Positions 1,514 to 51,644 of a stretch of DNA of 64,000 nucleotides are shown here, in pieces (within the stretch, counting starts at the first letter, position 1; each line of letters opens with the position of its first letter). The DNA is taken from IMG/VR virus record IMGVR_UViG_3300050821_024078; one strand, given 5' to 3'. Both the position numbers and the translations under genes were made by a program. The stretch is from an uncultured virus (IMG/VR IMGVR_UViG_3300050821_024078) (taxonomy: Duplodnaviria; Heunggongvirae; Uroviricota; Caudoviricetes). Under the pieces are notes generated by a model. It saw only the letters and a program-made list of their open reading frames with translations. It did no database searches and had not been told where the DNA came from.

Positions 1514-2176
1514 ATGAGTGAATTGAAACTGGCTGTTGATGCTGTTGTTTTCGGCTATAATGATGCTGGCTTACATGTTTTACTTATAAAAAGGGGTATT
1601 GAACCATTTAAAGATATTTGGGCTATTCCTGGAGGATTCGCTCAGGTTGATGAGACACTTGAAGAGACCGTAAAAAGAGAACTTAATGAGGAAGCTGGTA
1701 TAACAAATGTTTTTCTGGAACAATTATACACATTTTCGGATATTAGCCGGGATCCCAGAGGTAGAGTTATCTCAGCTGCTTATTACTGTTTAGTATCACC
1801 AAAAGAGCACAGGATTAAAGCTTCAACTGATGCTAAAGATGTGGCCTGGTTTCCTATTAAAGAGTTACCAGAACTTGCTTTTGATCATAAAGATATCATT
1901 AAAGTCGCTTTTGAAAGACTAAAAGGTAAAATAAAATATCAACCGGTTGGATTTGAATTAATGCCTAATAAGTTTACTATAAAAGAGCTGAGGTTGTTAT
2001 ATGAAACTATCTGGGAGAGACCTTTGGAAAGAAGTAATTTCCAAAAAAGAATAAAAACTCTTGATTTGGTAAAAGAAGTGGCGAGTGGTGATCATAAAAA
2101 TTCAACGAAGATTTTCTCTTTTAATAAAAAAGTATACAAAAAATTTAATAAGGATGGTTTCTATTTCGAGATTTAA
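1514..2176 (+). CDS. nrtR: NrtR-family Nudix-related transcriptional regulator (Nudix + C-terminal winged helix)
   Basis: LAVDAVVFGY...VLLIKR...WAIPGGF; intact Nudix box GFAQVDETLEETVKRELNEEAG; RDPRGRVIS; LAFDH; C-terminal FTIKELRLLYE...RSNFQKRI wHTH; adjacent to NAD salvage genes. Confidence 0.92.
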   Translation: MSELKLAVDAVVFGYNDAGLHVLLIKRGIEPFKDIWAIPGGFAQVDETLEETVKRELNEEAGITNVFLEQLYTFSDISRDPRGRVISAAYYCLVSPKEHRIKASTDAKDVAWFPIKELPELAFDHKDIIKVAFERLKGKIKYQPVGFELMPNKFTIKELRLLYETIWERPLERSNFQKRIKTLDLVKEVASGDHKNSTKIFSFNKKVYKKFNKDGFYFEI

Positions 2177-2204
2177 TTGTATTTATTAAAGAATTTAATA
2201 AAAA

Positions 2205-2269
2205 GTGTGAAAATTGGACACACGAAACAATTATTTTCAATATATAAAGTGTGTATAAAAGTTACACAC
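2205..2269 (+). promoter_or_regulatory. Two palindromic candidate NrtR operators (GTGT-N9-ACAC) flanking an ATATATA promoter-like motif
   Basis: GTGTGaaaattggaCACAC (2205-2223) and GTGTGTAtaaaagtTACACAC (2249-2269), with ATATATA at 2240-2246, directly upstream of nadM. Confidence 0.7.
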
Positions 2270-2290
2270 ATAAATTAAAAAAAACATAAT

Positions 2291-3223
2291 ATGCAAGAAA
2301 AATTATCAACAGACTTTTTAAATACAGGTGTGGTTGTGGCGAGATTTCAAGTGCCAGAATTACATCAAGGTCATCATGATCTCATTAGGAAAGTAAAACA
2401 GTATCATAAGAAAGTAATTATATTCCTTGGTGTAACCTCCACGCTTGATACAGATAACCCTTTGGATTATCCAACGAGAGAAAGAATGGTAAAGAAACAC
2501 TATCCTGATATTACTGTTGCCCCAATATCAAACTCTGAATATGATGATGTATGGGCTGAAACTCTTGATAATAAAATCAGGGAGATTGAACCAAGAAATA
2601 AAATTCTTCTATATGGAAGTCGTGATAGTTTTATTAAGTATTACAAACCTTATGGTAAATTTGAATGTATTGACTTCTTACCAGATGTAGATATGTCAGG
2701 TACTGAAATGCGTGCTGAAGTATGTAATGAAGTCAGAGATACCGAAGACTTTCGTCGAGGTCTGATTTATGAAAAACATAACAGCTGGCCTAAAGTATTT
2801 CCAACTGTTGATATTATAATCACAAGAAATAATAAAGGTCCTGAAATTCTTCTTGGTCAGAAACATAAAGAAATGAAATCTGGTAAATGGCGTATTCCAG
2901 GAGGTTTTATTGAGAAGAGACATAGTGGTGGTTTGAATGCTGCTGTAGCTGAGACTAAAGAAGAAACAGACCTGACTATATTACCTGAGAATCTAACATT
3001 CATTACACAGATGAATATTGATGATTGGCGTATTCGCAAATCGAAAGATGTTATAATGACTACTTTATTTCATACTCATATATCAGACATTGATACTAGC
3101 AATTTAGCTAAAGCTGGTGATGATCTTGGTGCTGTAAAATGGTTTAAACTATCCGAAGCTCTTGAAATAATTCATCCTATACACAAACCTTTATTAGAGG
3201 CATACTTACAAAAAATAATTTAA
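2291..3223 (+). CDS. nadM: Bifunctional NMN adenylyltransferase / Nudix (ADP-ribose pyrophosphatase-like) hydrolase
   Basis: ARFQVPELHQGH (HxGH nucleotidyltransferase motif), NPLDY, SGTEMR; C-terminal PTVDIII...WRIPGGF...ETKEETDL...AGDDL Nudix domain. Confidence 0.92.
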   Translation: MQEKLSTDFLNTGVVVARFQVPELHQGHHDLIRKVKQYHKKVIIFLGVTSTLDTDNPLDYPTRERMVKKHYPDITVAPISNSEYDDVWAETLDNKIREIEPRNKILLYGSRDSFIKYYKPYGKFECIDFLPDVDMSGTEMRAEVCNEVRDTEDFRRGLIYEKHNSWPKVFPTVDIIITRNNKGPEILLGQKHKEMKSGKWRIPGGFIEKRHSGGLNAAVAETKEETDLTILPENLTFITQMNIDDWRIRKSKDVIMTTLFHTHISDIDTSNLAKAGDDLGAVKWFKLSEALEIIHPIHKPLLEAYLQKII

Positions 3224-3227
3224 AAAT

Positions 3228-4619
3228 ATGGAAAATCTATTATTACTAACAGACTCTTACAAAGCGACACATGCTAAAGCATATGTTAAAGGTATACAGA
3301 ACATATACTCTTATATGGAATCAAGAGGTGGAAAATATGAAAAAATTATCTTCTTTGGATTACAGTATTACTTAAAGAAATATCTAACTGGTATCCAGGT
3401 TACCAAAGAAAAAATTGATGAGGCTGAAGCTTTCTGGGCTGAACATTTCGGTAGAACTGATTGTTTTAATAGAGAAGGCTGGGAACATATATTGAATGTT
3501 CATGGTGGTAAATTACCACTAAAGATTAAAGCTGTTACTGAGGGTAGTATTATTCCAATCAGCAATGTTTTGATGACTATTGAAAATACTGATCCTAATT
3601 GTTATTGGTTAACCAACTACGTCGAAAGTTTGCTCATGAAACTATGGTATCCAATTACGCAAACCAGTAGATCATATTATATTCGTAAAGATATTGAAGA
3701 AATACTTGAGAAATCTGGAACACCTGAATCTATTGCCTTCCGCTGTCATGATTTTTCCTATAGAGGCGTAACAAGTGAGGAACACGCTGCAATTGGTTGT
3801 GCGTCACATCTACTATCTTTTATGGGCACTGATACTGTTGCTGGTATAAGAATGTTACAAAAATATTATAGTGCTGGAATGTGTGGATTTTCTATTCCTG
3901 CAACAGAGCATTCTATTATGTGTTCTTTTGGTAGAGAACATGAGTTAGAAGCTTGTGAAAATTTCCTTGATACTTATCCAACAGGACTCATTGCATGTGT
4001 GAGTGACACATATAATATTTATGAATGTTGCTCTGATATATGGGGAGGTAAATTAAAAGATAAAGTTATCAACAGAGATGGAACGCTGGTGGTCAGGCCT
4101 GATTCGGGATCGTTTATGGAGATTGTTCCAGAAATATTAGAAATACTTGGAGATAAGTTTGGTTTTACTGTTAATGATAAAGGTTACAAAGTACTTGATC
4201 CACATGTAAGAGTAATACAAGGTGATGGTATGAATCCTGTTACAATAAAACAACTGTATGATCATATTATGAAACTTGGGTGGTCCGCAGACAATTTAAC
4301 CGTAGGTTCCGGTGGTGGTCTTATGATGAAAGATATTGATCGTGATACTTGTAAATTCGCTATAAAAGCTTCAGCAGCTAACATTAATGGTGAATGGATA
4401 GGTATACAAAAAGATCCTATCACAGATAAAGGTAAAAAGTCCAAAAAAGGAAGATTGAAATTGATTGAAGTAGTTGAAGAACCTTATTTTGAAACTATCG
4501 AAGAGAGTGATCCATACTATGACCAGGCTGTGGATATTTTACAAACTGTTTTTGAAAACGGTGAATTATTGATTGAATACAGTTTAGATGAAATAAAAGA
4601 AAAATTGAACAAGGCTTAA
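3228..4619 (+). CDS. nadV: Nicotinamide phosphoribosyltransferase (NAMPT)
   Basis: LLTDSYKATH, HDFSYRG, SIPATEHS, VSDTYN, VVRPDSG, IQGDG, GSGGGL, KDPITDKGKKSKKGRL. Confidence 0.96.
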   Translation: MENLLLLTDSYKATHAKAYVKGIQNIYSYMESRGGKYEKIIFFGLQYYLKKYLTGIQVTKEKIDEAEAFWAEHFGRTDCFNREGWEHILNVHGGKLPLKIKAVTEGSIIPISNVLMTIENTDPNCYWLTNYVESLLMKLWYPITQTSRSYYIRKDIEEILEKSGTPESIAFRCHDFSYRGVTSEEHAAIGCASHLLSFMGTDTVAGIRMLQKYYSAGMCGFSIPATEHSIMCSFGREHELEACENFLDTYPTGLIACVSDTYNIYECCSDIWGGKLKDKVINRDGTLVVRPDSGSFMEIVPEILEILGDKFGFTVNDKGYKVLDPHVRVIQGDGMNPVTIKQLYDHIMKLGWSADNLTVGSGGGLMMKDIDRDTCKFAIKASAANINGEWIGIQKDPITDKGKKSKKGRLKLIEVVEEPYFETIEESDPYYDQAVDILQTVFENGELLIEYSLDEIKEKLNKA

Positions 4620-5777: not shown

Positions 5778-6020
5778 ATGAGAAAAAAAGAGATAGCAAT
5801 AGTCGCTGTAGTTTCATATAATTTCAAAACAAAAGAGACAATAACTAAAGAGTTTGTTGAATCTGGTAAGGATAGTAATCCAATAAATGAAGCCGAAGAA
5901 TATCAATATCAGAAATTAAATTTACAATATGCTGAAGAAGACGGTTGGCAACATAAAGTTTTCGCAAATAAAAAAGCTGAACAACTAAGAAGAAAAGTTT
6001 GGAGTAATTTAGACCGATAA
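5778..6020 (+). CDS. Hypothetical protein
   Basis: Operon-packed ORF; stop overlaps the next start. Confidence 0.65.
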   Translation: MRKKEIAIVAVVSYNFKTKETITKEFVESGKDSNPINEAEEYQYQKLNLQYAEEDGWQHKVFANKKAEQLRRKVWSNLDR

Positions 6021-6757
6021 TGGGAAAAAGATTTATAATATCTGATATTCATGGTTCGTTTCTTGCATTTAAACAATGTCTTGAAAGATGTTCATTTAAC
6101 TATGAAGAAGATGAGTTGATCGTTAACGGGGATGTTGTTGATTCTTTTCCTGAAAGCAAAGAATGTGTAGATTTAATTCTGTCATTAAAGAATTATGTGT
6201 ATATAATTGGAAACCATTGTATATGGGCAAGGGATTATTTCAACTCTGATTGTAATATGGCTGTAGCTTCTGGAACCTGGCTTGAACATGGTGGTTTAGC
6301 AACAATAGCTTCATATAAGGATGGTGTTCCGGAATCACATAAACAATTCTTTAATGATGCAAAACCATATTATGTAACAAAGGATAATAAGTTGATTATT
6401 CATGCTGGATATAAACCTGGAGTACCATTATCATCAGAACATTTAGCTTATTATGTTTTCAATCGTGATTTAGTTGAAGCTGCTATTAAAGCTTTGAGAA
6501 ACGATCAAGCATTTAATTTACCTGATTTTGATGAAGTTTTTGTTGGTCATACACCTACTATAAGATATTTTCCTGAGCCAAGACCTGTAAGAGTAGGGAA
6601 TCTTTATATGATTGATACTGGTGCCGGATTCGATGGTGTTCTTACTATTATGGATATTGACAGCAAAAAATACTGGCAGTCAGATCAAGTGATGCGATTA
6701 TATCCTGATCATAAAGGAAGAAACAAACATTCATATAATGAATTGAATAAATTATGA
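6020..6757 (+). CDS. Calcineurin-like metallophosphoesterase (PphA/lambda phosphatase-like)
   Basis: SDIHG, GDVVD, GNH, HAG, GHTP, IDTG motifs. Confidence 0.9.
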   Translation: MGKRFIISDIHGSFLAFKQCLERCSFNYEEDELIVNGDVVDSFPESKECVDLILSLKNYVYIIGNHCIWARDYFNSDCNMAVASGTWLEHGGLATIASYKDGVPESHKQFFNDAKPYYVTKDNKLIIHAGYKPGVPLSSEHLAYYVFNRDLVEAAIKALRNDQAFNLPDFDEVFVGHTPTIRYFPEPRPVRVGNLYMIDTGAGFDGVLTIMDIDSKKYWQSDQVMRLYPDHKGRNKHSYNELNKL

Positions 6758-6951: not shown

Positions 6952-7734
6952 ATGGATTTAAACATCATAAATAACGCAAATTTTTTCTATCAACTGAAAG
7001 GGTTCAAATATATTGATTCACCATGGCTTGTTTGTGGGTCTGCTATAGATACTACTACGCCGTCTAAATCAGAAAGATTTACTATAAAAAACAAATTTCT
7101 TGTTGGTTCAGGTGAACAATCATTTATTGATATGATTATCAATGGTAAATTAGAACCTGGTCGATATTGCACTACAACACCATGTTTTCGTGATGAAATA
7201 GAGGATGAATTACATCAGATATATTTTATGAAAACAGAATTGATTGACACATTTGATGTGAGTCAAAATTCTCTTCAAAGAATAATTTCTATATGTAAAG
7301 AATTCTTTGAAACATATACAACAGTAGATATCATAAAAACTGATAGAGATCAATTTGATATCATTGATAAAAAAACCGAAATTGAATTAGGATCTTATGG
7401 AATTAGAAATACAAGAGAATTCTCTTGGATATATGCAACAGGTGTGGCTGAACCAAGACTTTCAAAAGTATTATCAAAAAATAATAAACCTGGTTACCAT
7501 AATAGTTTTATACCAAAAGGCCAGCTTGGTGAATTCAGTAAAATACAAGAAGAGTTTGAGGAATTTAAAGAGACAGTGCTAAATGATAACAAAGTAACCT
7601 CTTTATGTGAACTCTCAGATATGATAGGGGCTATAGAATTATATCTGAATAATAAATTCCCTGGAGTTAAAATAGATGATCTTATTAAAATGAAAGATTT
7701 AAATCGTAGAGCTTTTGAAAATGGAAAAAGATAA
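6952..7734 (+). CDS. Class II aminoacyl-tRNA-synthetase-like catalytic core fused to a MazG/HisE-like all-alpha NTP pyrophosphatase domain
   Basis: LVGSGEQ, TPCFRDE (motif 2-like), FMKTEL, IELGSYG, ATGVAEPR (motif 3-like); C-terminal SKIQEEFEE...ELSDMIGA acidic motif. Confidence 0.7.
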   Translation: MDLNIINNANFFYQLKGFKYIDSPWLVCGSAIDTTTPSKSERFTIKNKFLVGSGEQSFIDMIINGKLEPGRYCTTTPCFRDEIEDELHQIYFMKTELIDTFDVSQNSLQRIISICKEFFETYTTVDIIKTDRDQFDIIDKKTEIELGSYGIRNTREFSWIYATGVAEPRLSKVLSKNNKPGYHNSFIPKGQLGEFSKIQEEFEEFKETVLNDNKVTSLCELSDMIGAIELYLNNKFPGVKIDDLIKMKDLNRRAFENGKR

Positions 7735-7979
7735 TGGAAAATAAAATACAAGTAAGTTTCGAGTGTAACATATCTGGTATCAATAGAAGAGTTGATTTGC
7801 TAATTGATAATCCAGATGGTAAAGATTTAATGGTTTCCGAGATTCAAGATGTTATAAAGCAAATTAAACAATCTATGAAATTGACACTTCCTGATATTGA
7901 GTCTGTGAAAGTTCGTTATAACGAAGATCCGGATGATTATGATAAAGATTATATTAGTCTGATAGGAAAATGGAACTAG
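7734..7979 (+). CDS. Hypothetical protein
   Basis: Operon-packed ORF. Confidence 0.6.
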   Translation: MENKIQVSFECNISGINRRVDLLIDNPDGKDLMVSEIQDVIKQIKQSMKLTLPDIESVKVRYNEDPDDYDKDYISLIGKWN

Positions 7980-8377
7980 TAAAAATAACTCATCGAGATT
8001 CATGCAAGACTTATGCTTTGAAACGAGTAGGATTATCACATATTATTGATATGAATAATGATACGCCAACATTAAAGGATGTATGGGAGTCTGCACTGTT
8101 TGAAGAAATAAGAACACCAGAAGTAGGTTGTTTATTAATTTGGAAATACTCTAAGGGAGATGATGGTTATTATTCACCACATGAAATAGATGAATCTGGA
8201 AGAATTATCTATGTAAAAAGATTCGATTACGGACATATTGGAGTATTTGAATCTGGTAATATGGTTTCTGATGTGAGCTGGGAAGAAGGCTGGGGAGCCA
8301 TGATTCGTTTAAGAAAATATACTGACTTAACAATGCCAAATATAATACTAAAACTAAAAACTACTAATGTATCATAA
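7970..8377 (+). CDS. Hypothetical protein, possible papain-like (NlpC/CHAP-like) Cys-His fold
   Basis: DSCKTYA...PEVGCLLIW...GHIGVF spacing. Confidence 0.45.
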   Translation: MELVKITHRDSCKTYALKRVGLSHIIDMNNDTPTLKDVWESALFEEIRTPEVGCLLIWKYSKGDDGYYSPHEIDESGRIIYVKRFDYGHIGVFESGNMVSDVSWEEGWGAMIRLRKYTDLTMPNIILKLKTTNVS

Positions 8378-9161
8378 ATTTACCTTTTTCTATCAGTCGT
8401 TTTCGCCTTTTTCTCAGTGGTATAAAAAGGATTTCAATATAAACAGCATTACTTTCAATTGCTGTGAACAATATATGATGTATTGTAAAGCAATGCTTTT
8501 TGATGATACCGAAACGGCTAAAGAAATTTTAGAAACGGAGGAACCAAGAGACCAAAAAGCTTTAGGTAGAAAAGTTAAAAACTTCGAACAGATTACTTGG
8601 GACCTATTCAAACAAGATATTGTTTACAAAGGTAACTATGCTAAGTTCGCACAAAATCCAGATATCAAGAAATATCTGTTCGCAACTTGTAATACAACAA
8701 TTGTAGAATCGTCGAAGTTCGATAAAATATGGGGAATTGGGATAGGTATAGATGATCCAGCGAGGTTTGATATAAGGAACTGGGATGGTGAAAATCTTCT
8801 TGGCTACGCTCTTACTTTAGTAAGAGAGGATATTCTTAAGGAAGAAAAGGCTGTTCAAGTTATAAATGATATGTGGAAAACCATTACTGGTGATGTTTAT
8901 CTAAAAGATTTTACTTGCGGTCTATCTGATACTAATACAGAAGTTTTAAATGAACTCAGCTTGCATTATCAACAAATAACAATAGAGAACAAAGATGAAA
9001 ATGATGAAGGAGTTTCAATACTTTCACTTATGTCAACCTGGACAGATCTATTAGTGAATAAAAGACTTGTTGCTCTTACTGACGGTGGTAAAAGTAGAAA
9101 GATTGTTGGTTGGAAGATTATGGAAGACTACTTCTCTTATCCGTTTATATTTAAAATATGA
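8367..9161 (+). CDS. NADAR (YbiA/RibX) family protein with C-terminal extension
   Basis: SPFSQWY, CEQYMMYCKA.LFDD, QKALGRKV, AKFAQN, DKIWGIG, GENLLGYAL. Confidence 0.92.
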   Translation: MYHKFTFFYQSFSPFSQWYKKDFNINSITFNCCEQYMMYCKAMLFDDTETAKEILETEEPRDQKALGRKVKNFEQITWDLFKQDIVYKGNYAKFAQNPDIKKYLFATCNTTIVESSKFDKIWGIGIGIDDPARFDIRNWDGENLLGYALTLVREDILKEEKAVQVINDMWKTITGDVYLKDFTCGLSDTNTEVLNELSLHYQQITIENKDENDEGVSILSLMSTWTDLLVNKRLVALTDGGKSRKIVGWKIMEDYFSYPFIFKI

Positions 9162-9466: not shown

Positions 9467-10821
9467 TATATTTTATATACAAAAGTAGTCAAAATATTTA
9501 ATAAGTAAAACACTTATTTTTGATATATACAGTATCAAAAACGATATAATATTTAGTGCAAATAGTAACGATAAAGAAACAACAAAGTATATTTAATGAT
9601 ATTAGATTTATAGAGCAGTATAGTTCAGTTGTAAGGTTTACGTATAATAGAATTATAAAGGATAATATAATTAAAGCTTCGGAATTAGAACATATAGTGA
9701 AATCAACTATGAATAATATTGAACTTTTAGATGCTTCTTTCATTAAGTGTGCAGTCAAAAAGGCTTCTGAGTTAAATAGAGATGAGAAAATTTACTTCGG
9801 TTCAAAAAAAGAGTTCTTCAATAAAAAATATCATAGAAAAAATACTTACAACAAAAATACTCCTATATCAGTTAGAGGTGAAACATCAAAAGAGAGAAAA
9901 GGAAACAGAAAAGCTACACTTGATATCTTAAATAATATGGTGATATTCAAGCCTAAGAAAGGCATCCAGTATGAGATACCATTACAGTTATCAAAAGGTG
10001 AAAAAAATAATCTTTATAAACTACAATTATTATGTGAAGAAGGTAAAGGTTATTTCAATTTTATGATTTCAGAAGACTCTATCTGGATCAGTTACGATCC
10101 TTCTTTAATATCTGAAACAGTATATGAATCTAAGAAGGATAGATATTTAGGCCTGGATTTAAATCCTAATTATATAGGACTCAGTATTATGGATATCAAT
10201 CATAACAATAAAGTAGAAGTTTATAAAGAGATCATTGATTTAAGAAAGTTGAATGAATCAAATACTAATAAAAAGAACTATGAAACAGTAACTATATCAA
10301 AGCATATAATAAGTCTTTGTAAACATTATCATATTGAGTGTGTGGGTTTAGAAAACTTAAATATGAAATCTAAAAATCATAAGAAAGGTAAGAAACTTAA
10401 TCGTTTATTGAATAGTTGGAATAGAAATTCCTTCGTGAATAATTTGAAGAAAAGACTTACATTAAATTCAATAAAATTTAAAGAAGTGAGGCCCGAATAT
10501 AGCTCTTTTATAGGACAGTTAGAGAATCCATTAGATTATGACTCAGTAGCTGCTTCAAAGGAAATTGCTTACAGAAGTTTTCTTCTAAGCAAAGGTTTGA
10601 ATGAATATAATAGTATAAACAGAGAATGTATGAATCTTGTACCTACCCGTTGGAAGGAAATGGTACCTGAGGTTTTCACTACATTTAAAGACTTATACTA
10701 CACATTCAAAAAAAAGAAACTCTTATACAGTTACAGAGTTCTCTATGATTCATCCCATAGTTCTTCTAGCTTAAATTCTTATCGGTCTATGGTAGATCTG
10801 ATAAGATTATAAGTAACTGTT
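9445..10821 (+). mobile_element. Non-autonomous tnpB-only insertion element (IS200/IS605- or IS607-like)
   Basis: Contains only tnpB; hairpins at 9501-9517 and 9517-9541; boundaries inferred from restoring the flanking ORF. Confidence 0.55.
9556..10812 (+). CDS. tnpB: TnpB RNA-guided endonuclease (RuvC), lacking the CxxC zinc finger
   Basis: YSSVVRFTYNR N-terminus; RuvC-I LGLDLNP; RuvC-II GLENL; VRPEYSS; RuvC-III DSVAASKEIA. Confidence 0.88.
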   Translation: MQIVTIKKQQSIFNDIRFIEQYSSVVRFTYNRIIKDNIIKASELEHIVKSTMNNIELLDASFIKCAVKKASELNRDEKIYFGSKKEFFNKKYHRKNTYNKNTPISVRGETSKERKGNRKATLDILNNMVIFKPKKGIQYEIPLQLSKGEKNNLYKLQLLCEEGKGYFNFMISEDSIWISYDPSLISETVYESKKDRYLGLDLNPNYIGLSIMDINHNNKVEVYKEIIDLRKLNESNTNKKNYETVTISKHIISLCKHYHIECVGLENLNMKSKNHKKGKKLNRLLNSWNRNSFVNNLKKRLTLNSIKFKEVRPEYSSFIGQLENPLDYDSVAASKEIAYRSFLLSKGLNEYNSINRECMNLVPTRWKEMVPEVFTTFKDLYYTFKKKKLLYSYRVLYDSSHSSSSLNSYRSMVDLIRL

Positions 10822-42716: not shown

Positions 42717-42756
42717 ATAAAAAAGGCTCTGAAATATTTCAGAGCCTTTTTTATTT
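42715..42756. terminator. Bidirectional terminator (perfect 42-bp palindrome)
   Basis: AAATAAAAAAGGCTCTGAAAT/ATTTCAGAGCCTTTTTTATTT between convergent genes. Confidence 0.85.
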
Positions 42757-45700
42757 TAAGTATCACCGAATTGGCCAGAATCCCATATAGTATTTATTGC
42801 TATCCCCCCAGTAAATACAGCGTTTAAAACCAGTGAGTCCTTCATTATACCGTTGAAAAATTGACCATTCCTAAATACGGATACTACATTAGGTCCATTG
42901 ATATAATCACTATCTGTTCCTGTAGTGTTTGGTAGTATTGATATAAGAGCAACAGGTAAAGTATAATCATAACAATCATTTCCTGAAGTACCTGATGTAC
43001 CACTAGTACTATTAGATAAATCATAAATATTAACATATCCTCTGAATGAATTTGAAATAACATCATATGTAGATACTAAACCTGAAGTTCCAGCTAATAG
43101 AGGATAATATGCTAATAAATAACTACCACCATTTGTTCCAGCAGTTCCCTCATTATAATATGTTGTAATTCCTGAAGTACTGTACAATTGGTAATTTGAC
43201 ATGCTGTCTTCGATCTCTCGACCATTGAGACCACCGTTCCATACTTTTAGTTCATATAGAGCACCTTCAACATTGTCTATATCAATATTACTAATAGTTC
43301 CACTTGTACCATTAGTATATACACCAGAACTCGTTGAAACTAATACATTATTTTTCCATAATTCCTGAACACCATTATATGTTTGAGCTGTTATATAATT
43401 ATATTCTCCTAGATTAATATTTAAACTTAACTCAGATCCAGATACTGTATAAGTTATTTCATTACCATCTAAACTGAGATTAAGTTCTGGGTGATTGATT
43501 AAGTTTTTAGTTTGAATATCTTCAACACTAAACCAAAATTGAACACTATGATCAGATAAATTAAAATTTGTTAAGTGTGTATCAAAATAGTTATGTAGGT
43601 TATAATTTGGATTCAATAATAAAGATGTCTCTGATAGAAGCCTGTCGCCATAATTGTTTTCATTCGCTATAATAATGTAGTCAGGATTTGAACTGTCCAG
43701 AATTATGTGGCTGGCTGGCTCAGAATTATATCCAAAGAATTTAGCACTATTTGTAATAAAACCAAAAGAAGTATTAGGTTCACCAATAATAGTTATAGTG
43801 TTTTGTATAGTAGGATCAAGAAAATCTTTAAATCCATGTGGTTGAGTGAAATCCAGACGAATATGATCATCATCTAAACGATATATTGCTTTTATATTTA
43901 GACTAGACTCAAAGAGACCAAAATGCCATGTTGCATTTGTCCATGTGGAGGCTCCGCTTAGAGTCCCACCATACCAATCACCACCTGTAAATAAAACGTT
44001 TTTAAATGTTGTATATTTATAGCGTGTAGATGGTAAATAATTCCCATTAGAATCTTGATTAATACCATCGAATACAAACCCTCCAGAAAATAATCCTGCC
44101 TCCCATGTGGCTTTAAGTATTGGGCTTGTTGCTGTCCCAAAACGACTAGGTACTGAACTTGTTTGTGACCATAAACCATTGAGCCAGGTACCGTTTCCAA
44201 AGTCACCACCAATCCAAATACCTGAAAACCAAGTACTTGGGAGATTAGAACTACTAAATACACCATTTTGAAATGTACTATTGATAAAACTACCACCCAT
44301 AAAGTTACCTGAAGTCCATATACTATTTTCGAAGCTTCCACCAAACCACTGACCTGAAGTCCATATACTATTTTCGAAGCTTCCACCAAACCACTGACCA
44401 TTATGCCATACTGAATGTACAGTATCAGATTGGAATGTACCACCAAGCCATGTTGAAAGAGTATTATCGTTTGTATCAGTTGCTACATAAATGTTTAAAA
44501 GATCTTGTACTTGGTAAGAATACCAATCTCCTTGAGTCCAAGTACCTGAGTACCAAGTACCTGAGTACCATTTCGAACCACTCCATATACCATCAAACCA
44601 GCTCCCTTGGTACCATATTAATCCAGTTGAATCCTCTCCAATTATAGCATTATCAACTTCAGCATTTAGTATCCATGGATATTTAGTTGTTAATGATTGT
44701 AGTGTTAAACCATCAGTTAATGTAAATGTATAGTTAGTAAAATCAAGACCTGTTAATTGAAACCAATCAGATTGTAAATGATAATTGTAAGGTCTAACAG
44801 TTATACCTTTTTTAGGTTGGAAGTCACGTCCCATCTCAAATGCATCCACTGGTCTATAAGCAAAATTAGGATCATCAAGCCAGTCTATAACATTCATTAC
44901 TACATCACCAGCTTCATCTATACGAACAATTGCTGATATATTTTTTTTAATATTATCATCGTTAAGAAGATAGTTTGCGTATACTCCGCTTGTTTTAGTA
45001 AAATTATAAACCGCCTTATTAAATGGTGATTCGATTACACCATTAGTTCCGAACAAGCCATCTGTAGCTGGAGTAGGAAAAGATATATCATCAGTAAACT
45101 CAAGATCTTTAGATATTTCTATCAATTTATTTCGTGACCTTATAGATACCTGTGTTGTAGTTTCATTTATTAAAATATTTAAGTTTCTATCTACATAAAG
45201 AAGTACTCTTGCATTACCTAAGAAATTTGTTTCATATGTTTTTTTAATAATATAACATCTCTTAATTGTTGTGTTTCCTTTTGTAATATCAACAAAGGTT
45301 CCAGGTAAAAAACTATCTAATAAGTAATAATTACTTGTTAGATCTGTTGGGTCAGAGAAATTTTTAGTAGCATAAAATATGTTGTCAGTTAAAGTAAATT
45401 CATTAGTTGGAAACCCATCTATATTGAATACTTGTGAAGGCATATCTATTTCATAATCATAAGTGAATATCGGATCCAAATTTTCTAAGATATTCATTAT
45501 CTCATAAGTAGGCCCATAGACATTTCCAGATTCGTATTTTATTGGTATACTATAATTACTCACACCGACAGTCCATGTGACAGTAGTCTCAAGATTATAA
45601 TATTTAGTAGTATTATTTACATTACCACTAATAGTAATTACACCTGGTTGATCAATTGTTAAATTATAAGCTTCAGATAATAAGTGATTATCAAAGGTAT

Positions 45701-48700
45701 CTTTAAGAGTAAATAAATTTTGACCTTCGGCTGAGAAGTAATTCGTATTTTTAATTCGTATTTTAGCACCTAGCTGTTGTCCGGAAATAACAGAAGTTGG
45801 ATATTTTATATCAGCGATCATATCTGGTGAGAATTGCTCCCACAAGATTAAATCATTAATATATTGATCTCTAAGTATAACAGTTTCATCAAATATTAAC
45901 CATTCTACAGAGAATACTTCAACACTTGTAGAATAATCAACAAGATTACTTTGAACACTTATAATTGCTAAAGTATCAGTAATTATTCTTTGTGCCAATT
46001 GCTCAGCGGTTAAACCAATGTAATTACCATAAGTACCAACTGATTCCTGACCAAGAAGTCCTACTCCTGGTAACGAGAAGAATCCGTCTGATGATATAGT
46101 AACTATTTCTTCTTGATTAACAATGTTATAAACATACTGACCATCTAAAATATTTTGTTTGATTACAGAATATCTTACGACTAATTGATCTAAGGCGTTT
46201 ATTACATTACCAAGAGATACTTTTAATGCTGGATCTATACCCCAATAGTTTGTAATAGCTGTGATTCTAAGTACATCACCTGAAGCAGCTGTAAAAGGAG
46301 TATTATATAATCTTATTTTATTAACCTTTGTATTTTCATAAAAAATATCTTCTACTAAACCAGCCGGCTCCGAAACAAATTCAGCAGCTGATGATGTTGA
46401 TGCATAAGATCCACTTGTTGGTGGTCCTGGAATTATGAATGTTTCAATAGAATAATTACTTGTGTCTGAAACAGCTGTTAATCTCTTATTATATTTTCTT
46501 GGTGTTTCAACAACCCCGTAAGTATTAAGACCACCGTCTTGTATTCTACGGTTCAATAAATAATAATCTTGTATAGCAAGATAGTTACGTTGATTCTTAA
46601 CTGTTCCGTATTCACTAAATTCGATGAAATCACCAGGAAGCATTTTATAACAATCCAATAATGTTTTATCGAATGTTCCTGTAGGAATAATAAATTCACC
46701 TTCACTAAGTTGGATATTTATTTTACGACCTAAATAATAATCAAGGAATAATAATCTTGGTTTAAAGTGTAATTCTGTTGTAGGATCTATTTCTTGGAAA
46801 TTTAAATCATTTCTTACCCAAGTATCACCGGATCCGGTGAAAAGTTCTGTAGAATATATTTCTTTATCAAATCTGTATAATCTATTATTGTTATAGAAAG
46901 AACCGTTTGATGCTAAATTCGGATAAGTAGTAATAGCTGTTCTAGTAGCCGTATTTACTATTGGATAAATGTTTGTGTTTATTGTAGGAGATATCCTTTC
47001 TAGACTTGCTGTAATAATGTTTCCAGTTGCTGTTAAAGCTATCAATGATGTTTCTTGTGTAACCGGATCCCTTATTATATCAATGTTGTCTAATGAATCA
47101 GGAAGTACATAATTTATATTACTGAAACTGATAAGATTATTTTGATACGTAATATTTAATTGTATAAGGAAATTGTTTGAAGCAAAATAGAAATTATCCT
47201 CGAATAATTTTACATCAATAATGTCTGTAGTGATAGTTGTGTTTTCAATAGTATCTTGATATAAAACATGTATTCTTGTATCGGTTTCACCTGTCACAGA
47301 AGCCAAACTTGCTGGTATTAGAATGTTGTCTATTGTCCAAATGTTATTAATTAATGTTAAATGAAGTATCAATCCACCTTGTCCAGTAATAATAACTCTG
47401 GTTTTTTGATACATTAAAACTTTAAAGAGTGTTTTATTATTTACTTGAGGTAGATTTAATACTTCCCATAGAGTACCACCATTGAATGTGTAAAGTATAA
47501 TACCATTTTTACCAACGATCATACCTTGATTTATATCAAAGAAAGATACATCATTTAGATCGTCTGGAGTAGTTGTAACTAAAACTTCCCAAGTAACACC
47601 GTAGTCTTCTGTTTTTATAATTAAACCACTTTTACCAATAATCCATCCTGTACCACTTAAATTTGGAACAATGTAATTGTTATCATTAAAAGTTTTAGAG
47701 ACATCAAATGTAGTATTGATAAAATCTTCTCTTACAACAGTATTTAGAAGCGTTAAATCACCTGAAGTACCATAATTGTCCGAAAAATGAGAATAGGCAA
47801 CACCGAAGTCGGCAACCCACCACCCTTTTGTTGTCTCATTATAGGTAAGCACATCTTGCCATAATGATATATCATTTAAATTAAGTATATTAAAATATTT
47901 AAGACCTGTAGTATCTGTGGATACAACATCACATTTAAAAGGATCCACAGATTTAATTTCTGTAATAGGATATTTCGTAATATTTGAGAAGGTCACTTTA
48001 TCACTAAATGTTCTTATACCAAATGATAACATAGTCACTCTACTTGCATCACCCAATATCAAATAATCCTTAGAATTATATGAGAAGTAATCTACAGCTA
48101 TTGTAGTAGCGTTTGTTGTTAATAAATGTTCAACACTACTATTTCCACATTTGAATAACTGATATAATCCAGTATTTAAGTCATAAGACCATAGTTCTGC
48201 TGTAGTACCATTATTAACTTTTGATATTACAATTATTCTAGTACCAACAATAGTAATATCTTGTATACTTGAATTGAAATTGAAATATTCTCCGGCACTA
48301 TCGAGTTCAATATTGTTGATATAAAGCTCTTTAATACTATTAACAAGTCTTAATGAAATTGTGTTTGATCCTACGGTCCATGTTTTAATATCACTATTTG
48401 AATGTTCAAACATTGGATAGAATCCTTTATAACTCAAACCTGTATAAGCAGCACTTGGTATTTGTATACCAGCAGCATTATAAGGACTACTAAGAATATG
48501 TAATTCATTTGAATTATCTTCAATATAAACATTAATGAAATCACTAATACTATCACCGTTTATATCTTGATTTGAAATGTACATAGCTGCTACACCATTC
48601 GTTCCCCATGATATACCATTTGTAAGTGTGGTTTGATTAAGAATACTTTCATTATCTCTTAAAATATCATTACCAATTACATAATATATGTGTGTTTCAT

Positions 48701-51644
48701 CAACAGCGAAATCAAAAATATTTATAGTCCCAGAAATACTTATTGTTGGTGTAAACGAATCTGTGGTTATGATATTATTTAAAAATACAGCATCGGTATG
48801 ATCGTATTTATAAATAGTATTATTTGTTAAGTAATATAGAATGTCTTGATCAACTTGTATAGATTGTATATTTCTACCATTTGTTCCTGCATCAGGAAGC
48901 ATTTGTTGGACATATTCTTCCATAAGATTGACACGATAAATATTATCATAATTATCTTGTGTTAAGATATAAAGATAAGTGGATGTTTCTACAATTTGTG
49001 TTGGTGTTTGAATTTCTGGAAGTATTGGGTCTGAACCAAGACCACCTACGAATATACCATCTCTGTTTGCTATCTGATCCAATATTTCATAATCTGTATC
49101 TTTAAGGGTCCAGTAAGATGTCAGGTTAGGTCTTAAATTATCCGTTGTAGCGATTGGTGCTCCAGCCCTTGCATTTATTTGAGCTTGGTTTAATACTTTA
49201 TTCCAAATACGAATCTCGGACAGATATCCATTATATAAAGGGTGTGCTAAGAATTCAGATCTACCTAGAACATTTACATTAAATGGTATAGTACTGATAT
49301 CTAAAACAGGTGTTATAACAACTTTATTTTGTATTAGTACCTGGTCAATAAGTGAACCTACTAATTGCCCGTTCAGATAAAATCTTGCTGATACACGACT
49401 TGAAGTATAATCCCAGGTAATTGATATATTATTATTTACTCCTACCGTTAAAACGCTACTAGATACCAAAGAAAGACTTTTTACTGTATTGGAAACTATG
49501 AAAGTAGGAAACCCTCCTTCATTAACAGAGAACATTATATAATTGATCGGTGTTTGTGTTAAGTTAAATAAACTAGATGATCCTATTAATGGTCTTTGTG
49601 AAGGTCTTGCCTCACCAAAATAAAATACATTAGCACTAGCTTTTAAAGTACTTGGGTTAATTGTGAAATCGATGGTAAAACTGGAAAGTCCTACAAAAGG
49701 TGATGTTACTGAATTAGTATTGATACTTGTATCAAAAGAGACATAATCAACTTTACCATCAAAGAATCTTTCAACTGTTGTATCAATTTTTGGTAGTGTT
49801 ATACCATTTGTACCAGAAACTTGAGAACCTTTTAAGTAAAGTGTATCATTTATAATCTGCCAGTTACCTTGTAATTGTTTACTTTGTGGATATATTAAAT
49901 AGTCAACATCTTTATAGAATGAAAGGCCAGCACCTACTCTGTAAGCTTCATTAGAATATCTTCTTGGTGAATTATCTGAATCTATCCAGGACAAATATAA
50001 ATTTCCTGAAGTTGAAGAAGAGCCATCAGCATCTAAAGCGAGATGTATAGGATCACCATCTAATATCAGTTCATAGTTAACTGTTGTAAATAATAAATCG
50101 GTAAAATATTGATAAACACCTATTGCTGTGGATAAGAATATAGAAAGATTATTTATACCTTCAAAAGCTTTTACTTCATTTGATAATATATCTGTTAAAA
50201 ATTCTTGTTTTAGAGTATATGTTGAATCATATATCTGAACAGTATTATTACTACTTGTAGAATATTGAGCAAATAATAAAATCAAATAATTTGTTGAAAA
50301 ACAAAAATCAATAACTTCACCAGCGAATATATTTTCTAAATTATAATAATTAAGTATTGGATCATAAGACCATAATTCTGTATTTGGATATACATAATTT
50401 AAAAAATATATTTTACCATTTTTTTCTACAAGTCTGCTTTTAGCATTGAATAAAGGAACTATTTGTTGAATTGAATCTCCGGAAGTTCCTGAGGTCCCAG
50501 AAGTGCTACTTGTAGAAGCTGTTCCTGAAGTATTGCTTAATAAAGTTAAATTAAGTAAATATTTTCCGTTAGAACTTATTTGATAACTATCACCATCAAC
50601 AGTTATAATATCTGTAAAATTAGCATCTATTATAGGATCTTCTTCAGTATAATAGAATCCGGCTCTGTTTTCATTATCTTGAAGTAGTTTATAACTTATT
50701 TTATTTCTTATCAGAAGATTTTTACCGGTCTCAAAATATTTAGGGTCATTTAAACCTGGGAATGTACCATCAGGATTTCTTGAAAGAAAATATTCGAATG
50801 ATTTGTAAACAAGTCCTTCTTTAACAAAGATTGTGAGTAGATTTAAATCGGCTGCTGTTTCTACCCAGTCAACTTTAGTTAAAGTTTGATTTGCGTAGGT
50901 ATAAGGACCATTTTCTACTGGATTGTCTTGATTAATTAAGAAGACTATTTGATCCTCAAAAAGCTGTACACCATCTACAGTTAAAGATTGATATAATTGT
51001 GTAATATCTAAGTTTGTATCACTAACATAGTCAACAAGGTTAAAATTAGATAGAAGTTTGTTTATGGTAATATCAGCAGTAAAATAGTTTGGTACACTAT
51101 ATCCAAGTTGTTCAAAGTTTGGATTAAATACACCATAAACATCATCTTTAGTAAAATCAGCATTAAGAATGTATTGTGAATATAAAGGTAATCCAGATGT
51201 TCCGGAAGTACCTGAAAATAGAATTTGTTGGAATTCGTCGTAGGCACCATCAAGTCGAAACAAATTGGAATTGGCTGCTATAGCCATACCATTAGCAATA
51301 GCATATCTTATATTGTAATTGATATAATCAACCTTTTGTACAGGATCTTGAATATCAGATAATATTTGATCTCTGTTGTAAAGTATACTTAAGTTGTATA
51401 ATTTCCCTGCCTCCAGACTTATATCATTAATAAATATAGAATCTGCTCCTGTAATCCAAAAATAAAAACCATGTTGATAGTGTATCAGATCAAAAAGATC
51501 ATCTAGCTTATGTGTAGTTGTATAGGCAGCTGCACTTGTACATTTAGCATAAGTATAAACTTTATCAAGAGTTTTCAGAAATTCTTCTGTTGTCCATGTT
51601 TGCTCGTATTTACTCCAGAATTTATTTTCTTTATTCCACAACAT
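42756..51644 (-). CDS. Giant (2962 aa) tail-fibre/baseplate-associated protein
   Basis: DGVQL...INQDNPVENGPY fibre motif; two LamG/concanavalin-like domains (YNGYLSEIRIWNKVL; GALYELKVWN); YCF48/BNR-like propeller (GWIIGKSGLIIKTEDYGVTW); W-x-x-G-x pentapeptide repeats; SGTSG linkers. Confidence 0.75.
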   Translation of the reverse strand: MLWNKENKFWSKYEQTWTTEEFLKTLDKVYTYAKCTSAAAYTTTHKLDDLFDLIHYQHGFYFWITGADSIFINDISLEAGKLYNLSILYNRDQILSDIQDPVQKVDYINYNIRYAIANGMAIAANSNLFRLDGAYDEFQQILFSGTSGTSGLPLYSQYILNADFTKDDVYGVFNPNFEQLGYSVPNYFTADITINKLLSNFNLVDYVSDTNLDITQLYQSLTVDGVQLFEDQIVFLINQDNPVENGPYTYANQTLTKVDWVETAADLNLLTIFVKEGLVYKSFEYFLSRNPDGTFPGLNDPKYFETGKNLLIRNKISYKLLQDNENRAGFYYTEEDPIIDANFTDIITVDGDSYQISSNGKYLLNLTLLSNTSGTASTSSTSGTSGTSGDSIQQIVPLFNAKSRLVEKNGKIYFLNYVYPNTELWSYDPILNYYNLENIFAGEVIDFCFSTNYLILLFAQYSTSSNNTVQIYDSTYTLKQEFLTDILSNEVKAFEGINNLSIFLSTAIGVYQYFTDLLFTTVNYELILDGDPIHLALDADGSSSTSGNLYLSWIDSDNSPRRYSNEAYRVGAGLSFYKDVDYLIYPQSKQLQGNWQIINDTLYLKGSQVSGTNGITLPKIDTTVERFFDGKVDYVSFDTSINTNSVTSPFVGLSSFTIDFTINPSTLKASANVFYFGEARPSQRPLIGSSSLFNLTQTPINYIMFSVNEGGFPTFIVSNTVKSLSLVSSSVLTVGVNNNISITWDYTSSRVSARFYLNGQLVGSLIDQVLIQNKVVITPVLDISTIPFNVNVLGRSEFLAHPLYNGYLSEIRIWNKVLNQAQINARAGAPIATTDNLRPNLTSYWTLKDTDYEILDQIANRDGIFVGGLGSDPILPEIQTPTQIVETSTYLYILTQDNYDNIYRVNLMEEYVQQMLPDAGTNGRNIQSIQVDQDILYYLTNNTIYKYDHTDAVFLNNIITTDSFTPTISISGTINIFDFAVDETHIYYVIGNDILRDNESILNQTTLTNGISWGTNGVAAMYISNQDINGDSISDFINVYIEDNSNELHILSSPYNAAGIQIPSAAYTGLSYKGFYPMFEHSNSDIKTWTVGSNTISLRLVNSIKELYINNIELDSAGEYFNFNSSIQDITIVGTRIIVISKVNNGTTAELWSYDLNTGLYQLFKCGNSSVEHLLTTNATTIAVDYFSYNSKDYLILGDASRVTMLSFGIRTFSDKVTFSNITKYPITEIKSVDPFKCDVVSTDTTGLKYFNILNLNDISLWQDVLTYNETTKGWWVADFGVAYSHFSDNYGTSGDLTLLNTVVREDFINTTFDVSKTFNDNNYIVPNLSGTGWIIGKSGLIIKTEDYGVTWEVLVTTTPDDLNDVSFFDINQGMIVGKNGIILYTFNGGTLWEVLNLPQVNNKTLFKVLMYQKTRVIITGQGGLILHLTLINNIWTIDNILIPASLASVTGETDTRIHVLYQDTIENTTITTDIIDVKLFEDNFYFASNNFLIQLNITYQNNLISFSNINYVLPDSLDNIDIIRDPVTQETSLIALTATGNIITASLERISPTINTNIYPIVNTATRTAITTYPNLASNGSFYNNNRLYRFDKEIYSTELFTGSGDTWVRNDLNFQEIDPTTELHFKPRLLFLDYYLGRKINIQLSEGEFIIPTGTFDKTLLDCYKMLPGDFIEFSEYGTVKNQRNYLAIQDYYLLNRRIQDGGLNTYGVVETPRKYNKRLTAVSDTSNYSIETFIIPGPPTSGSYASTSSAAEFVSEPAGLVEDIFYENTKVNKIRLYNTPFTAASGDVLRITAITNYWGIDPALKVSLGNVINALDQLVVRYSVIKQNILDGQYVYNIVNQEEIVTISSDGFFSLPGVGLLGQESVGTYGNYIGLTAEQLAQRIITDTLAIISVQSNLVDYSTSVEVFSVEWLIFDETVILRDQYINDLILWEQFSPDMIADIKYPTSVISGQQLGAKIRIKNTNYFSAEGQNLFTLKDTFDNHLLSEAYNLTIDQPGVITISGNVNNTTKYYNLETTVTWTVGVSNYSIPIKYESGNVYGPTYEIMNILENLDPIFTYDYEIDMPSQVFNIDGFPTNEFTLTDNIFYATKNFSDPTDLTSNYYLLDSFLPGTFVDITKGNTTIKRCYIIKKTYETNFLGNARVLLYVDRNLNILINETTTQVSIRSRNKLIEISKDLEFTDDISFPTPATDGLFGTNGVIESPFNKAVYNFTKTSGVYANYLLNDDNIKKNISAIVRIDEAGDVVMNVIDWLDDPNFAYRPVDAFEMGRDFQPKKGITVRPYNYHLQSDWFQLTGLDFTNYTFTLTDGLTLQSLTTKYPWILNAEVDNAIIGEDSTGLIWYQGSWFDGIWSGSKWYSGTWYSGTWTQGDWYSYQVQDLLNIYVATDTNDNTLSTWLGGTFQSDTVHSVWHNGQWFGGSFENSIWTSGQWFGGSFENSIWTSGNFMGGSFINSTFQNGVFSSSNLPSTWFSGIWIGGDFGNGTWLNGLWSQTSSVPSRFGTATSPILKATWEAGLFSGGFVFDGINQDSNGNYLPSTRYKYTTFKNVLFTGGDWYGGTLSGASTWTNATWHFGLFESSLNIKAIYRLDDDHIRLDFTQPHGFKDFLDPTIQNTITIIGEPNTSFGFITNSAKFFGYNSEPASHIILDSSNPDYIIIANENNYGDRLLSETSLLLNPNYNLHNYFDTHLTNFNLSDHSVQFWFSVEDIQTKNLINHPELNLSLDGNEITYTVSGSELSLNINLGEYNYITAQTYNGVQELWKNNVLVSTSSGVYTNGTSGTISNIDIDNVEGALYELKVWNGGLNGREIEDSMSNYQLYSTSGITTYYNEGTAGTNGGSYLLAYYPLLAGTSGLVSTYDVISNSFRGYVNIYDLSNSTSGTSGTSGNDCYDYTLPVALISILPNTTGTDSDYINGPNVVSVFRNGQFFNGIMKDSLVLNAVFTGGIAINTIWDSGQFGDT
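44307..44396 (-). repeat. Exact 45-nt tandem duplication inside the pentapeptide-repeat region
   Basis: acctgaagtccatatactattttcgaagcttccaccaaaccactg x2 (QWFGGSFENSIWTSG x2). Confidence 0.95.

Follow-up and report, generated by a model that had tools for sequence, protein, structure and literature searches.

A SerRS-type catalytic core without a tRNA arm joined to a HisE/MazG-type domain, very probably of the Atd1 family, in a large tailed phage

Introduction

What would a tailed phage do with a synthetase-type enzyme that has no domain for holding tRNA and is joined to a small pyrophosphatase-like domain? This question is raised by one gene in a 64,000-nucleotide stretch of DNA from an uncultured virus (IMG/VR IMGVR_UViG_3300050821_024078), referred to as the window below. 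An initial annotation, made from the sequence, described the gene as a minimal class II adenylation domain fused to a MazG/HisE-like pyrophosphatase and proposed a dedicated two-step enzyme that makes or removes a modified nucleotide, a signalling molecule or a protein modification. Here we follow up this proposal through profile and structural comparison, a survey of relatives and their neighbouring genes, and a link to the published anti-defence protein Atd1.

Results

The gene and its two halves

The gene (P0001, positions 6952..7734, + strand) starts with ATG and encodes 260 aa with zero internal stops. It begins directly against the upstream stop and runs into the following start codon; GC content is 0.291 for the gene and 0.298 for the window. 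The open reading frame, profiles and the AF2 model together describe an armless SerRS-type core followed by a HisE/MazG-type pyrophosphatase, very probably of the Atd1 family. The fused gene is real, and faulty assembly does not account for the fusion, since both halves occur in one chain in 127 of 256 retrieved relatives. The window, in which genes with baseplate, PhoH, helicase, and methylase matches were found, comes from a sizeable tailed phage, a large myophage, and no tRNA gene was detected in it.

PHROGs profiles divide the protein into residues 1-178 (phrog_4806, labelled 'histidyl tRNA synthetase', E 1.3e-38) and residues 179-260 (phrog_6408, E 5.1e-29), which is the same two-half split that the initial annotation had drawn. 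The motifs quoted there were located at residues 76-82 (TPCFRDE), 162-169 (ATGVAEPR), 197-204 (KIQEEFEE), and 220-223 (ELSD). Searches of Pfam and NCBIfam with the fused protein gave sub-threshold matches only (tRNA-synt_2, tRNA-synt_2d, PRA-PH, and TIGR03188), and a single-sequence PDB search gave no match.

The N-terminal half resembles the catalytic core of SerRS

Residues 1-177 (6952..7482, + strand; phrog_4806) were assigned by profiles and VIA to a SerRS-type class II catalytic core, and the residues of the active site can be followed one by one on the same strand. S53-x-E55 (7108..7116) corresponds to the TxE loop of SerRS (T237/E239 in E. coli) and is invariant. Motif 2 (7183..7239) is built from C78-F-R80-D-E82 and F92-x-K94-x-E96, joined by a short acidic loop that contains H88; in it, R80, E82, F92, K94, and E96 are equivalent to R268, E270, F287, K289, and E291 of E. 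coli SerRS. E145-L-G-S148 (7384..7395) corresponds to SerRS E355 and S358, which we take to be metal ligands. Motif 3 (7435..7458) carries T163 at the position of E. coli S391 and R169 at that of R397; two residues before T163, a Tyr or Phe at position 161 replaces the SerRS Asn (N389) in the core family. S53, E55, R80, F92, K94, E96, E145, T163, and R169 are invariant in 111/111 fused rows and in 120/120 core-domain rows, the latter comprising 119 retrieved proteins and the core of the window. Their SerRS counterparts presumably bind serine and metal, and from these invariant residues the core is likely to bind serine and ATP and to make seryl-AMP.

The AF2 model of the fused protein (pLDDT 96.9, pTM 0.91) bears out the class II fold expected from the motifs, together with a VIA match to SerRS at Z 19.6 and the invariance of R80, F92, and R169. 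In the VIA ranking, seven SerRS chains come first (Z 19.6-17.9; top match rmsd 2.5 over 184 aligned residues), followed by HisRS (17.7, which ties with the lower SerRS rows), HisZ (17.1), PylRS (17.0), and a ligase of amino acids to carrier proteins (aa:CP ligase, 16.0). The best 11 matches of the PDB profile search are all SerRS (best E 2.8e-7). Foldseek, which compares by shape, ranks PylRS catalytic domains first, against the SerRS reading; PylRS as the closest family was nevertheless rejected, as its sequence matches in the PDB profile search reach only E 0.13 or worse. A histidine-pathway reading of the two halves as HisZ and HisE was likewise rejected because the core is SerRS-type. Weaker archaeal matches to the core profile are ORFs of 420-460 aa and proved to be full-length SerRS in 9/9 tested. 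Judged by these profiles and residues, the core is a SerRS-type class II catalytic domain. The earlier description of a stand-alone class II core thus stands, while the kinship with EpmA or AsnA suggested alongside it gives way to a specific one with SerRS.

What the core lacks is the tRNA arm. Residue 1 of the model aligns to residues 168-238 of the SerRS chains, so that the protein starts at the SerRS catalytic region and the N-terminal tRNA arm is absent, in agreement with the missing tRNA-binding domain noted at the outset. No tRNA-arm domain was found in any relative examined. Furthermore, the motif-2 loop has 11-12 residues in 238/244 matched rows from 257 proteins examined, with a mean charge of -2.6, compared with 18 residues and a charge of +1 in E. 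coli SerRS. Short acidic loops of this kind occur in some true synthetases too, and so the loop counts for little by itself; net charge gives no separation (core -6, SerRS -6). Selection of tRNA-Ser by the core is unlikely. Two Microcystis-phage-like contigs (L067 and L068, 5058-5696, + strand) carry fused copies whose ORF call leaves out the first ~50 core residues, which may mean that the gene is broken or that its start was miscalled.

The C-terminal half carries an intact HisE/MazG-type metal site

Residues 180-260 (7489..7731, + strand; phrog_6408) form a small helical HisE/MazG-type domain. Within it, on the same strand, lie a G-Y182-H183 motif (7492..7500) specific to the small-domain family, the MazG-type acidic metal site formed by K197, E200, E201, E204, E220, and D223 (7540..7620; invariant, with K197 in 110/111), and a C-terminal F255-x-x-G-x-R260 (7714..7731) in which F and R are invariant. 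The EExxE...ExxD signature is intact in 111/111 fused rows and 30/30 stand-alone rows, which upholds the acidic site on which the MazG/HisE assignment depended.

Profile matches to 1yvw, 2a7w, and 1vmg are weak (E 0.02-0.05), and the domain stays under curated cut-offs (PF01503, 13.6 vs 21.3 bits; TIGR03188, 14.1 vs 42.7 bits). The whole-protein AF2 model shows three helices here, and Atlas gives TM 0.57-0.65 to MazG/HisE clusters, beneath its naming bar; these three sources are the basis for the putative fold of the small domain. In one other protein (P0257), a small domain follows a weak RNase_H_2-like domain (E 0.007) and not the core.

The small domain is very probably a member of the Atd1 family

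Atd1 (anti-TIR defence 1) is described as a MazG-like gene of Pectobacterium phage 'PcCB7V', recovered in a screen of uncharacterised ORFs <200 aa lying at most four genes from a phage NTase (Ho et al., bioRxiv 10.1101/2022.06.09.495361). According to the accessible part of this preprint, Atd1 dephosphorylates ppGpp with a Km of about 50 uM and is inactive on rNTPs and cGG, lowers the signal of a (p)ppGpp reporter, and counters TIR-STING and retron-TIR; Atd1 alone, without a partner, protected E. coli and cleaved ppGpp. The words 'synthetase' and 'seryl' each occur 0 times in that part of the text (bioRxiv 10.1101/2022.06.09.495361).

We take 'PcCB7V' to be vB_PatM_CB7. The CB7 record holds a single RlaP-type NTase, CB7_175, which carries the motif given in the Atd1 paper. 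Two genes downstream of it lies CB7_173, the only MazG-clan match among the 27 of 38 genes scanned there; the other MazG of CB7 (CB7_232), already labelled a pyrophosphatase in the record, lies at a distance of 33 kb. The published range of Atd1 covers Phapecoctavirus, Justusliebigvirus, and Lazarusvirus (PMC11724313, accessible part), and all three genera are matched by the small domain of the window. Because CB7_173 is what the library rule selects, namely a small uncharacterised ORF near the sole RlaP-type NTase and the only MazG-clan match, and given the genus range, it is very likely to be Atd1. CB7_173 is 43% identical to the C-terminal domain of the window protein over 82 aa with the same acidic site, and the adjoining CB7_172 encodes the same mini-SerRS, 37% identical to the window core. 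By this likeness, the C-terminal domain very probably belongs to the Atd1 family. The MazG-like nature of this half is thereby retained; what the initial annotation missed is the probable family, whose studied member is reported active on ppGpp and not on rNTPs.

The two halves are near-obligate partners

In the family search, 1613/1906 candidates matched, as did 2101 representatives at 50% identity. The 256 retrieved proteins comprise 127 with both halves (124 core-first and 3 small-first) and 129 with the core only; no stand-alone small protein is among the matches listed from this first search, which was restricted to at least 143 aa. In independent searches of 50,697 phage records with each half, the core matched 274 and the small half 277, a comparison of per-genus tallies rather than record lists that is free of paired-query bias. 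The core/small tallies are 112/112 for Escherichia, 13/13 for Caulobacter, 10/10 for Pectobacterium, 8/8 for Cronobacter, 8/8 for Microcystis, and 61/59 for Acinetobacter.

Among 85 loci, 14 are fused, 35 have the core gene followed by the small gene, 32 have the reverse order, and 4 appear core-only by ORF calling, though the tblastn ranges of these 4 extend into the small half. The halves therefore do exist as adjacent separate genes, one of the checks proposed at the outset. The 80 viral loci favour pairs, since they were ranked by a full-length query; a scan of viral contigs for the core alone found nothing. The near-obligate pairing (274 vs 277 records) and fusions in both orders agree with the idea of a dedicated two-part enzyme. 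Collectively, the halves are near-obligate partners, and the two-gene unit is self-sufficient.

In 71/81 paired loci, 10 short or identical loci having been dropped, the identity between two cores goes along with that between their small halves (2443 pairs, rho 0.48, a value reached in 0/1000 shuffles); such co-divergence is also expected from plain co-inheritance. A quick tree gives 7 changes of arrangement, but well-supported branches force only 2 per group. Covariation between the domains peaks at z 5.2, and within domains it extends to 13.9; with no control, these values give no reading either way. A complex prediction for a naturally split pair (the L049 core and its small protein), made with 30-row alignments, scored 0.00 against a mark of 0.32, which counts neither for nor against contact between the halves.

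Outside phages, the fused form was found in one DPANN phylum (3/401 genomes) and in bins of giant viruses (L005, L007, and L012), where its neighbours are RING, LRR, or Rpb3/11 genes. A plasmid search gave no match to the module, and a genome-contig scan returned only its own query. Searches for longer fusions gave 5 and 4 proteins with no recurrent extra domain among them, and only 5 proteins exceed 307 aa in the longer-form search. In Caulobacter phage CcrColossus (L001, 4242-5096, + strand), an RNA polymerase alpha-CTD-like domain precedes the core (E 3.1e-6).

No third gene accompanies the pair

The phosphoesterase and NADAR between which the gene was initially placed do lie upstream and downstream of it, respectively, but neither adjoins it: a 65-aa ORF lies directly upstream, and an 81-aa and a 135-aa ORF downstream. 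A role for this context is not supported, as both genes are only local neighbours. A link to the upstream ApaH/PPP-like phosphoesterase was rejected because it has no match in any of the other loci (other metallophosphoesterases are present in 3), and an NAD-pathway reading was rejected because, among 89 loci, the NADAR, NAMPT, and NadM of the window have matches in only 2, 3, and 4, respectively. The pair has no constant companion gene; the best cluster spans 5/61 locus groups. The 188 neighbours scanned, chosen from 223 after omission of 35 (already scanned, edge-cut, or likely shadow ORFs), form a mixture of genes for nucleotide metabolism, RNA repair and NAD, along with genes of unknown kind. 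No carrier-protein or EF-P-pathway gene is recurrent in the 61 locus groups or the 188 scanned neighbours, nor is any histidine-pathway gene recurrent near the module. Whole-genome base replacement after the PurZ/MazZ logic is unsupported, as there is no recurrent partner.

Several genes around the module deserve description in their own right. At 1514-4619 (+ strand), an NrtR-type Nudix/wHTH regulator, a NadM-Nudix, and NAMPT follow one another and make up a phage operon for NAD salvage that includes a regulator. The metallophosphoesterase at 6020-6757 (+ strand) scores about equally as a Ser/Thr phosphatase and as an ApaH/PrpE Ap4A hydrolase, all under cut-off. The NADAR protein (8367-9161, + strand) has its domain at residues 8-156 and a C-terminal extension of ~100 aa without a convincing family match. 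A 418-aa TnpB-related protein at 9556-10812 (+ strand; TIGR01766 above cut-off, guided_TnpB far under) probably represents an IS200/IS605-type insertion, and a 2962-aa ORF at 42756-51644 (- strand) has no PHROG match at E 0.001. At another locus (L082, 6644-7429, + strand), a second and different short class II core of 262 aa, HisRS-like, lies near the mini-SerRS pair and is closely followed by a tRNA-His gene at 7783.

Discussion

A possible function of the module

Our best reading, which we hold tentatively and which falls a little short of probable, is a two-part counter-defence enzyme against alarmone signalling, in which seryl-AMP is discharged on a nucleotide and not on tRNA-Ser. The self-contained enzyme would target the stringent-response-type nucleotide signalling of the infected cell. 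The C-terminal domain, as an Atd1-family Mg-dependent pyrophosphatase, would take pyrophosphate off (p)ppGpp-like nucleotides, and the N-terminal domain would bind serine and ATP to form seryl-AMP. Because the core has no tRNA arm, we infer that it may hand the adenylate to a small nucleotide acceptor instead of tRNA-Ser. AMP could be passed to a nucleoside polyphosphate (Ap4N/ApppGpp-type chemistry), or serine to the ribose group exposed by the pyrophosphatase; in either case, the alarm signal would be consumed or capped through two linked steps. Both chemistries have precedents in the accessible parts of published work: aminoacyl-tRNA synthetases without bound tRNA transfer the adenylate to ATP (PMC10148737), and in albomycin synthesis a synthetase-type enzyme moves serine onto a nucleoside (PMC9032320). 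The two-step relay is not required for protection, since Atd1 by itself was enough both to protect E. coli and to cleave ppGpp. That the module also occurs in DPANN archaea and giant-virus bins makes ppGpp doubtful as the sole substrate. No RelA/SpoT was found in the two archaeal/giant-virus records searched, both of which are incomplete. Archaea are not generally known to have ppGpp.

Those copies would be accommodated by the rescue of tRNA ends, a rather unlikely explanation in our judgement, since tRNA is a target in all three domains. The core would serylate deacylated tRNA 3' ends with little selectivity and silence RelA, and the Atd1 half would clear (p)ppGpp and/or strip the 3'-pyrophosphate left by toxSAS from tRNA-CCA. 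As the accessible parts of the sources report, RelA senses deacylated tRNA (bioRxiv 10.1101/2022.06.09.495361), toxSAS place a pyrophosphate on the 3' end of tRNA as part of antiphage defence (PMC11245113), and Atd1 prefers ppGpp, which bears a 3'-pyrophosphate, over rNTPs. The armless core with its short acidic motif-2 loop speaks against such a target, and non-selective serylation should give mistranslation. The neighbouring genes point both ways. tRNA genes lie within 5 kb in 13/60 loci (tRNA-Ser in 5/60), a count without a background rate, but 47/60 loci and the window have none nearby; RNA ligase, RlaP, PTH2, and Thg1 genes are found among the neighbours, but each only sporadically (at most 4/61 groups).

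It is less likely again that the module makes a seryl-nucleoside or seryl-nucleotide in the manner of AbmF, the pyrophosphatase yielding a monophosphate for the core to join to serine, with the activity on ppGpp a side effect. This idea draws on the archaeal loci, where the fused gene is followed by a small MoaA/viperin-like radical SAM gene in 2/3 (L085/L092 and L093, 51% identical between the two loci) and preceded by an AAA_28 P-loop gene in 1/3 (L085). Albomycin synthesis uses a kinase homologue, an aminoacyl-tRNA-synthetase-type seryl transferase, and a radical SAM enzyme, as described in the accessible part of PMC9032320. In the viral loci, however, tblastn gave no match to the archaeal radical SAM, and these loci have no constant third gene (at most 5/61 groups); the reported inactivity of Atd1 on rNTPs in its partly accessible source, which makes no mention there of dNTPs, also disagrees with such a route.

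Serylation of a host protein or carrier by the core, following EpmA or the aa:CP ligases, with the pyrophosphatase as a co-selected separate anti-defence function, appears improbable. Acylation of proteins is indeed described for class II paralogues without an arm (PMC9437257, accessible part), and the aa:CP ligase 3mey is matched by the core at VIA Z 16.0; against this, no carrier-protein gene recurs among the neighbours, and it would be left unexplained why the core is so regularly paired, and repeatedly fused, with a nucleotide pyrophosphatase. An ordinary tRNA-Ser synthetase for phage translation is very improbable: relatives are annotated as 'seryl-' or 'histidyl-tRNA synthetase', the gene is read so in the accessible part of a genome paper (PMC8953757), and the SerRS pocket is intact, but no relative examined has an arm domain, only 5 proteins exceed 307 aa, tRNA-Ser is nearby in only 5/60 loci, and the pyrophosphatase partner would go unexplained.

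A wider form of the counter-defence reading, which we consider unlikely, is that large phages, giant viruses, and DPANN archaea share a 177-residue 'minimal SerRS' with Atd1 that would disarm starvation-type immunity at both ends, the 3'-pyrophosphate being removed from ppGpp or from toxin-blocked tRNA and the freed ribose being capped with serine. If this were true, the module would represent a new chemistry, either of seryl-nucleotides or of tRNA charging blind to identity, and hydrolysis of ppGpp would account for just half of the real job of Atd1.

Relation to published work

The literature search, with most subscription journals outside its scope, found no paper on the pairing of the core with an Atd1-type pyrophosphatase. 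In their accessible parts, PMC7824862 mentions MazG-like genes of jumbo phages without the small-domain family, PMC9437257 lists SerRS paralogues without the armless phage core, three texts cite Atd1 as a lone gene (PMC10419184, PMC13573597, and 10.64898/2026.01.27.700999), and PMC11580382, a background source, does not cover the pairing. If the link holds, half of the fused protein is already known as the Atd1 family; new here is the constant company that a SerRS paralogue without the arm keeps with a pyrophosphatase of that family, and the function of the serine half seems unstudied. A published anti-defence protein would be tied to a near-obligate partner that goes unmentioned in its preprint and that databases label histidyl- or seryl-tRNA synthetase, and Atd1 would have been characterised as half an enzyme. 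Phages growing on E. coli K-12 carry the pair, which makes its role directly testable. So small a class II core, natural and with its serine site intact, is also relevant to how minimal synthetases work and to what serine transfer without tRNA can do.

Comparison with known systems

Compared with Atd1, which was studied as a lone 86-aa gene, the window copy is fused to a SerRS-type core; an NTase lies two genes from CB7_173 in CB7, whereas no NTase is among the window neighbours scanned. The core has the same fold as standard SerRS (PDB 7u2a, 6ote, 2dq0, and 1ser; E. coli SerS) and shares with it [TS]xE, CFRxE, FxKxE, ExxS, and the T six residues before the motif-3 Arg; the 'GTSEQS' of DPANN SerRS closely resembles the 'GSAEQS' of the core family. 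It differs in having no N-terminal tRNA arm, a total of ~177 aa, a motif-2 loop that is acidic and 6-7 residues shorter, Tyr/Phe in place of Asn389, and a tie to a pyrophosphatase. The small domain, helical in the AF2 model, has K..EExxE...ExxD in common with the all-alpha NTP pyrophosphatases HisE/PRA-PH (PF01503, TIGR03188) and MazG (PF03819), but it falls under every curated cut-off and has GYH and FxxGxR motifs of its own. The aa:CP ligases, EpmA/PoxA, AsnA, and AbmF likewise have a catalytic core without tRNA-binding domains, and in the accessible parts of the sources none of aa:CP ligases, EpmA, AsnA, and AbmF is described as viral or pyrophosphatase-paired (PMC9437257, PMC9032320). Their VIA scores are lower than that of SerRS (aa:CP 16.0, AsnA 13.3-13.7, and EpmA 13.5). 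In conclusion, as far as sequence comparison can tell, the module is neither a true SerRS nor a HisE and is predicted to behave as a tRNA-independent class II ligase-like enzyme.
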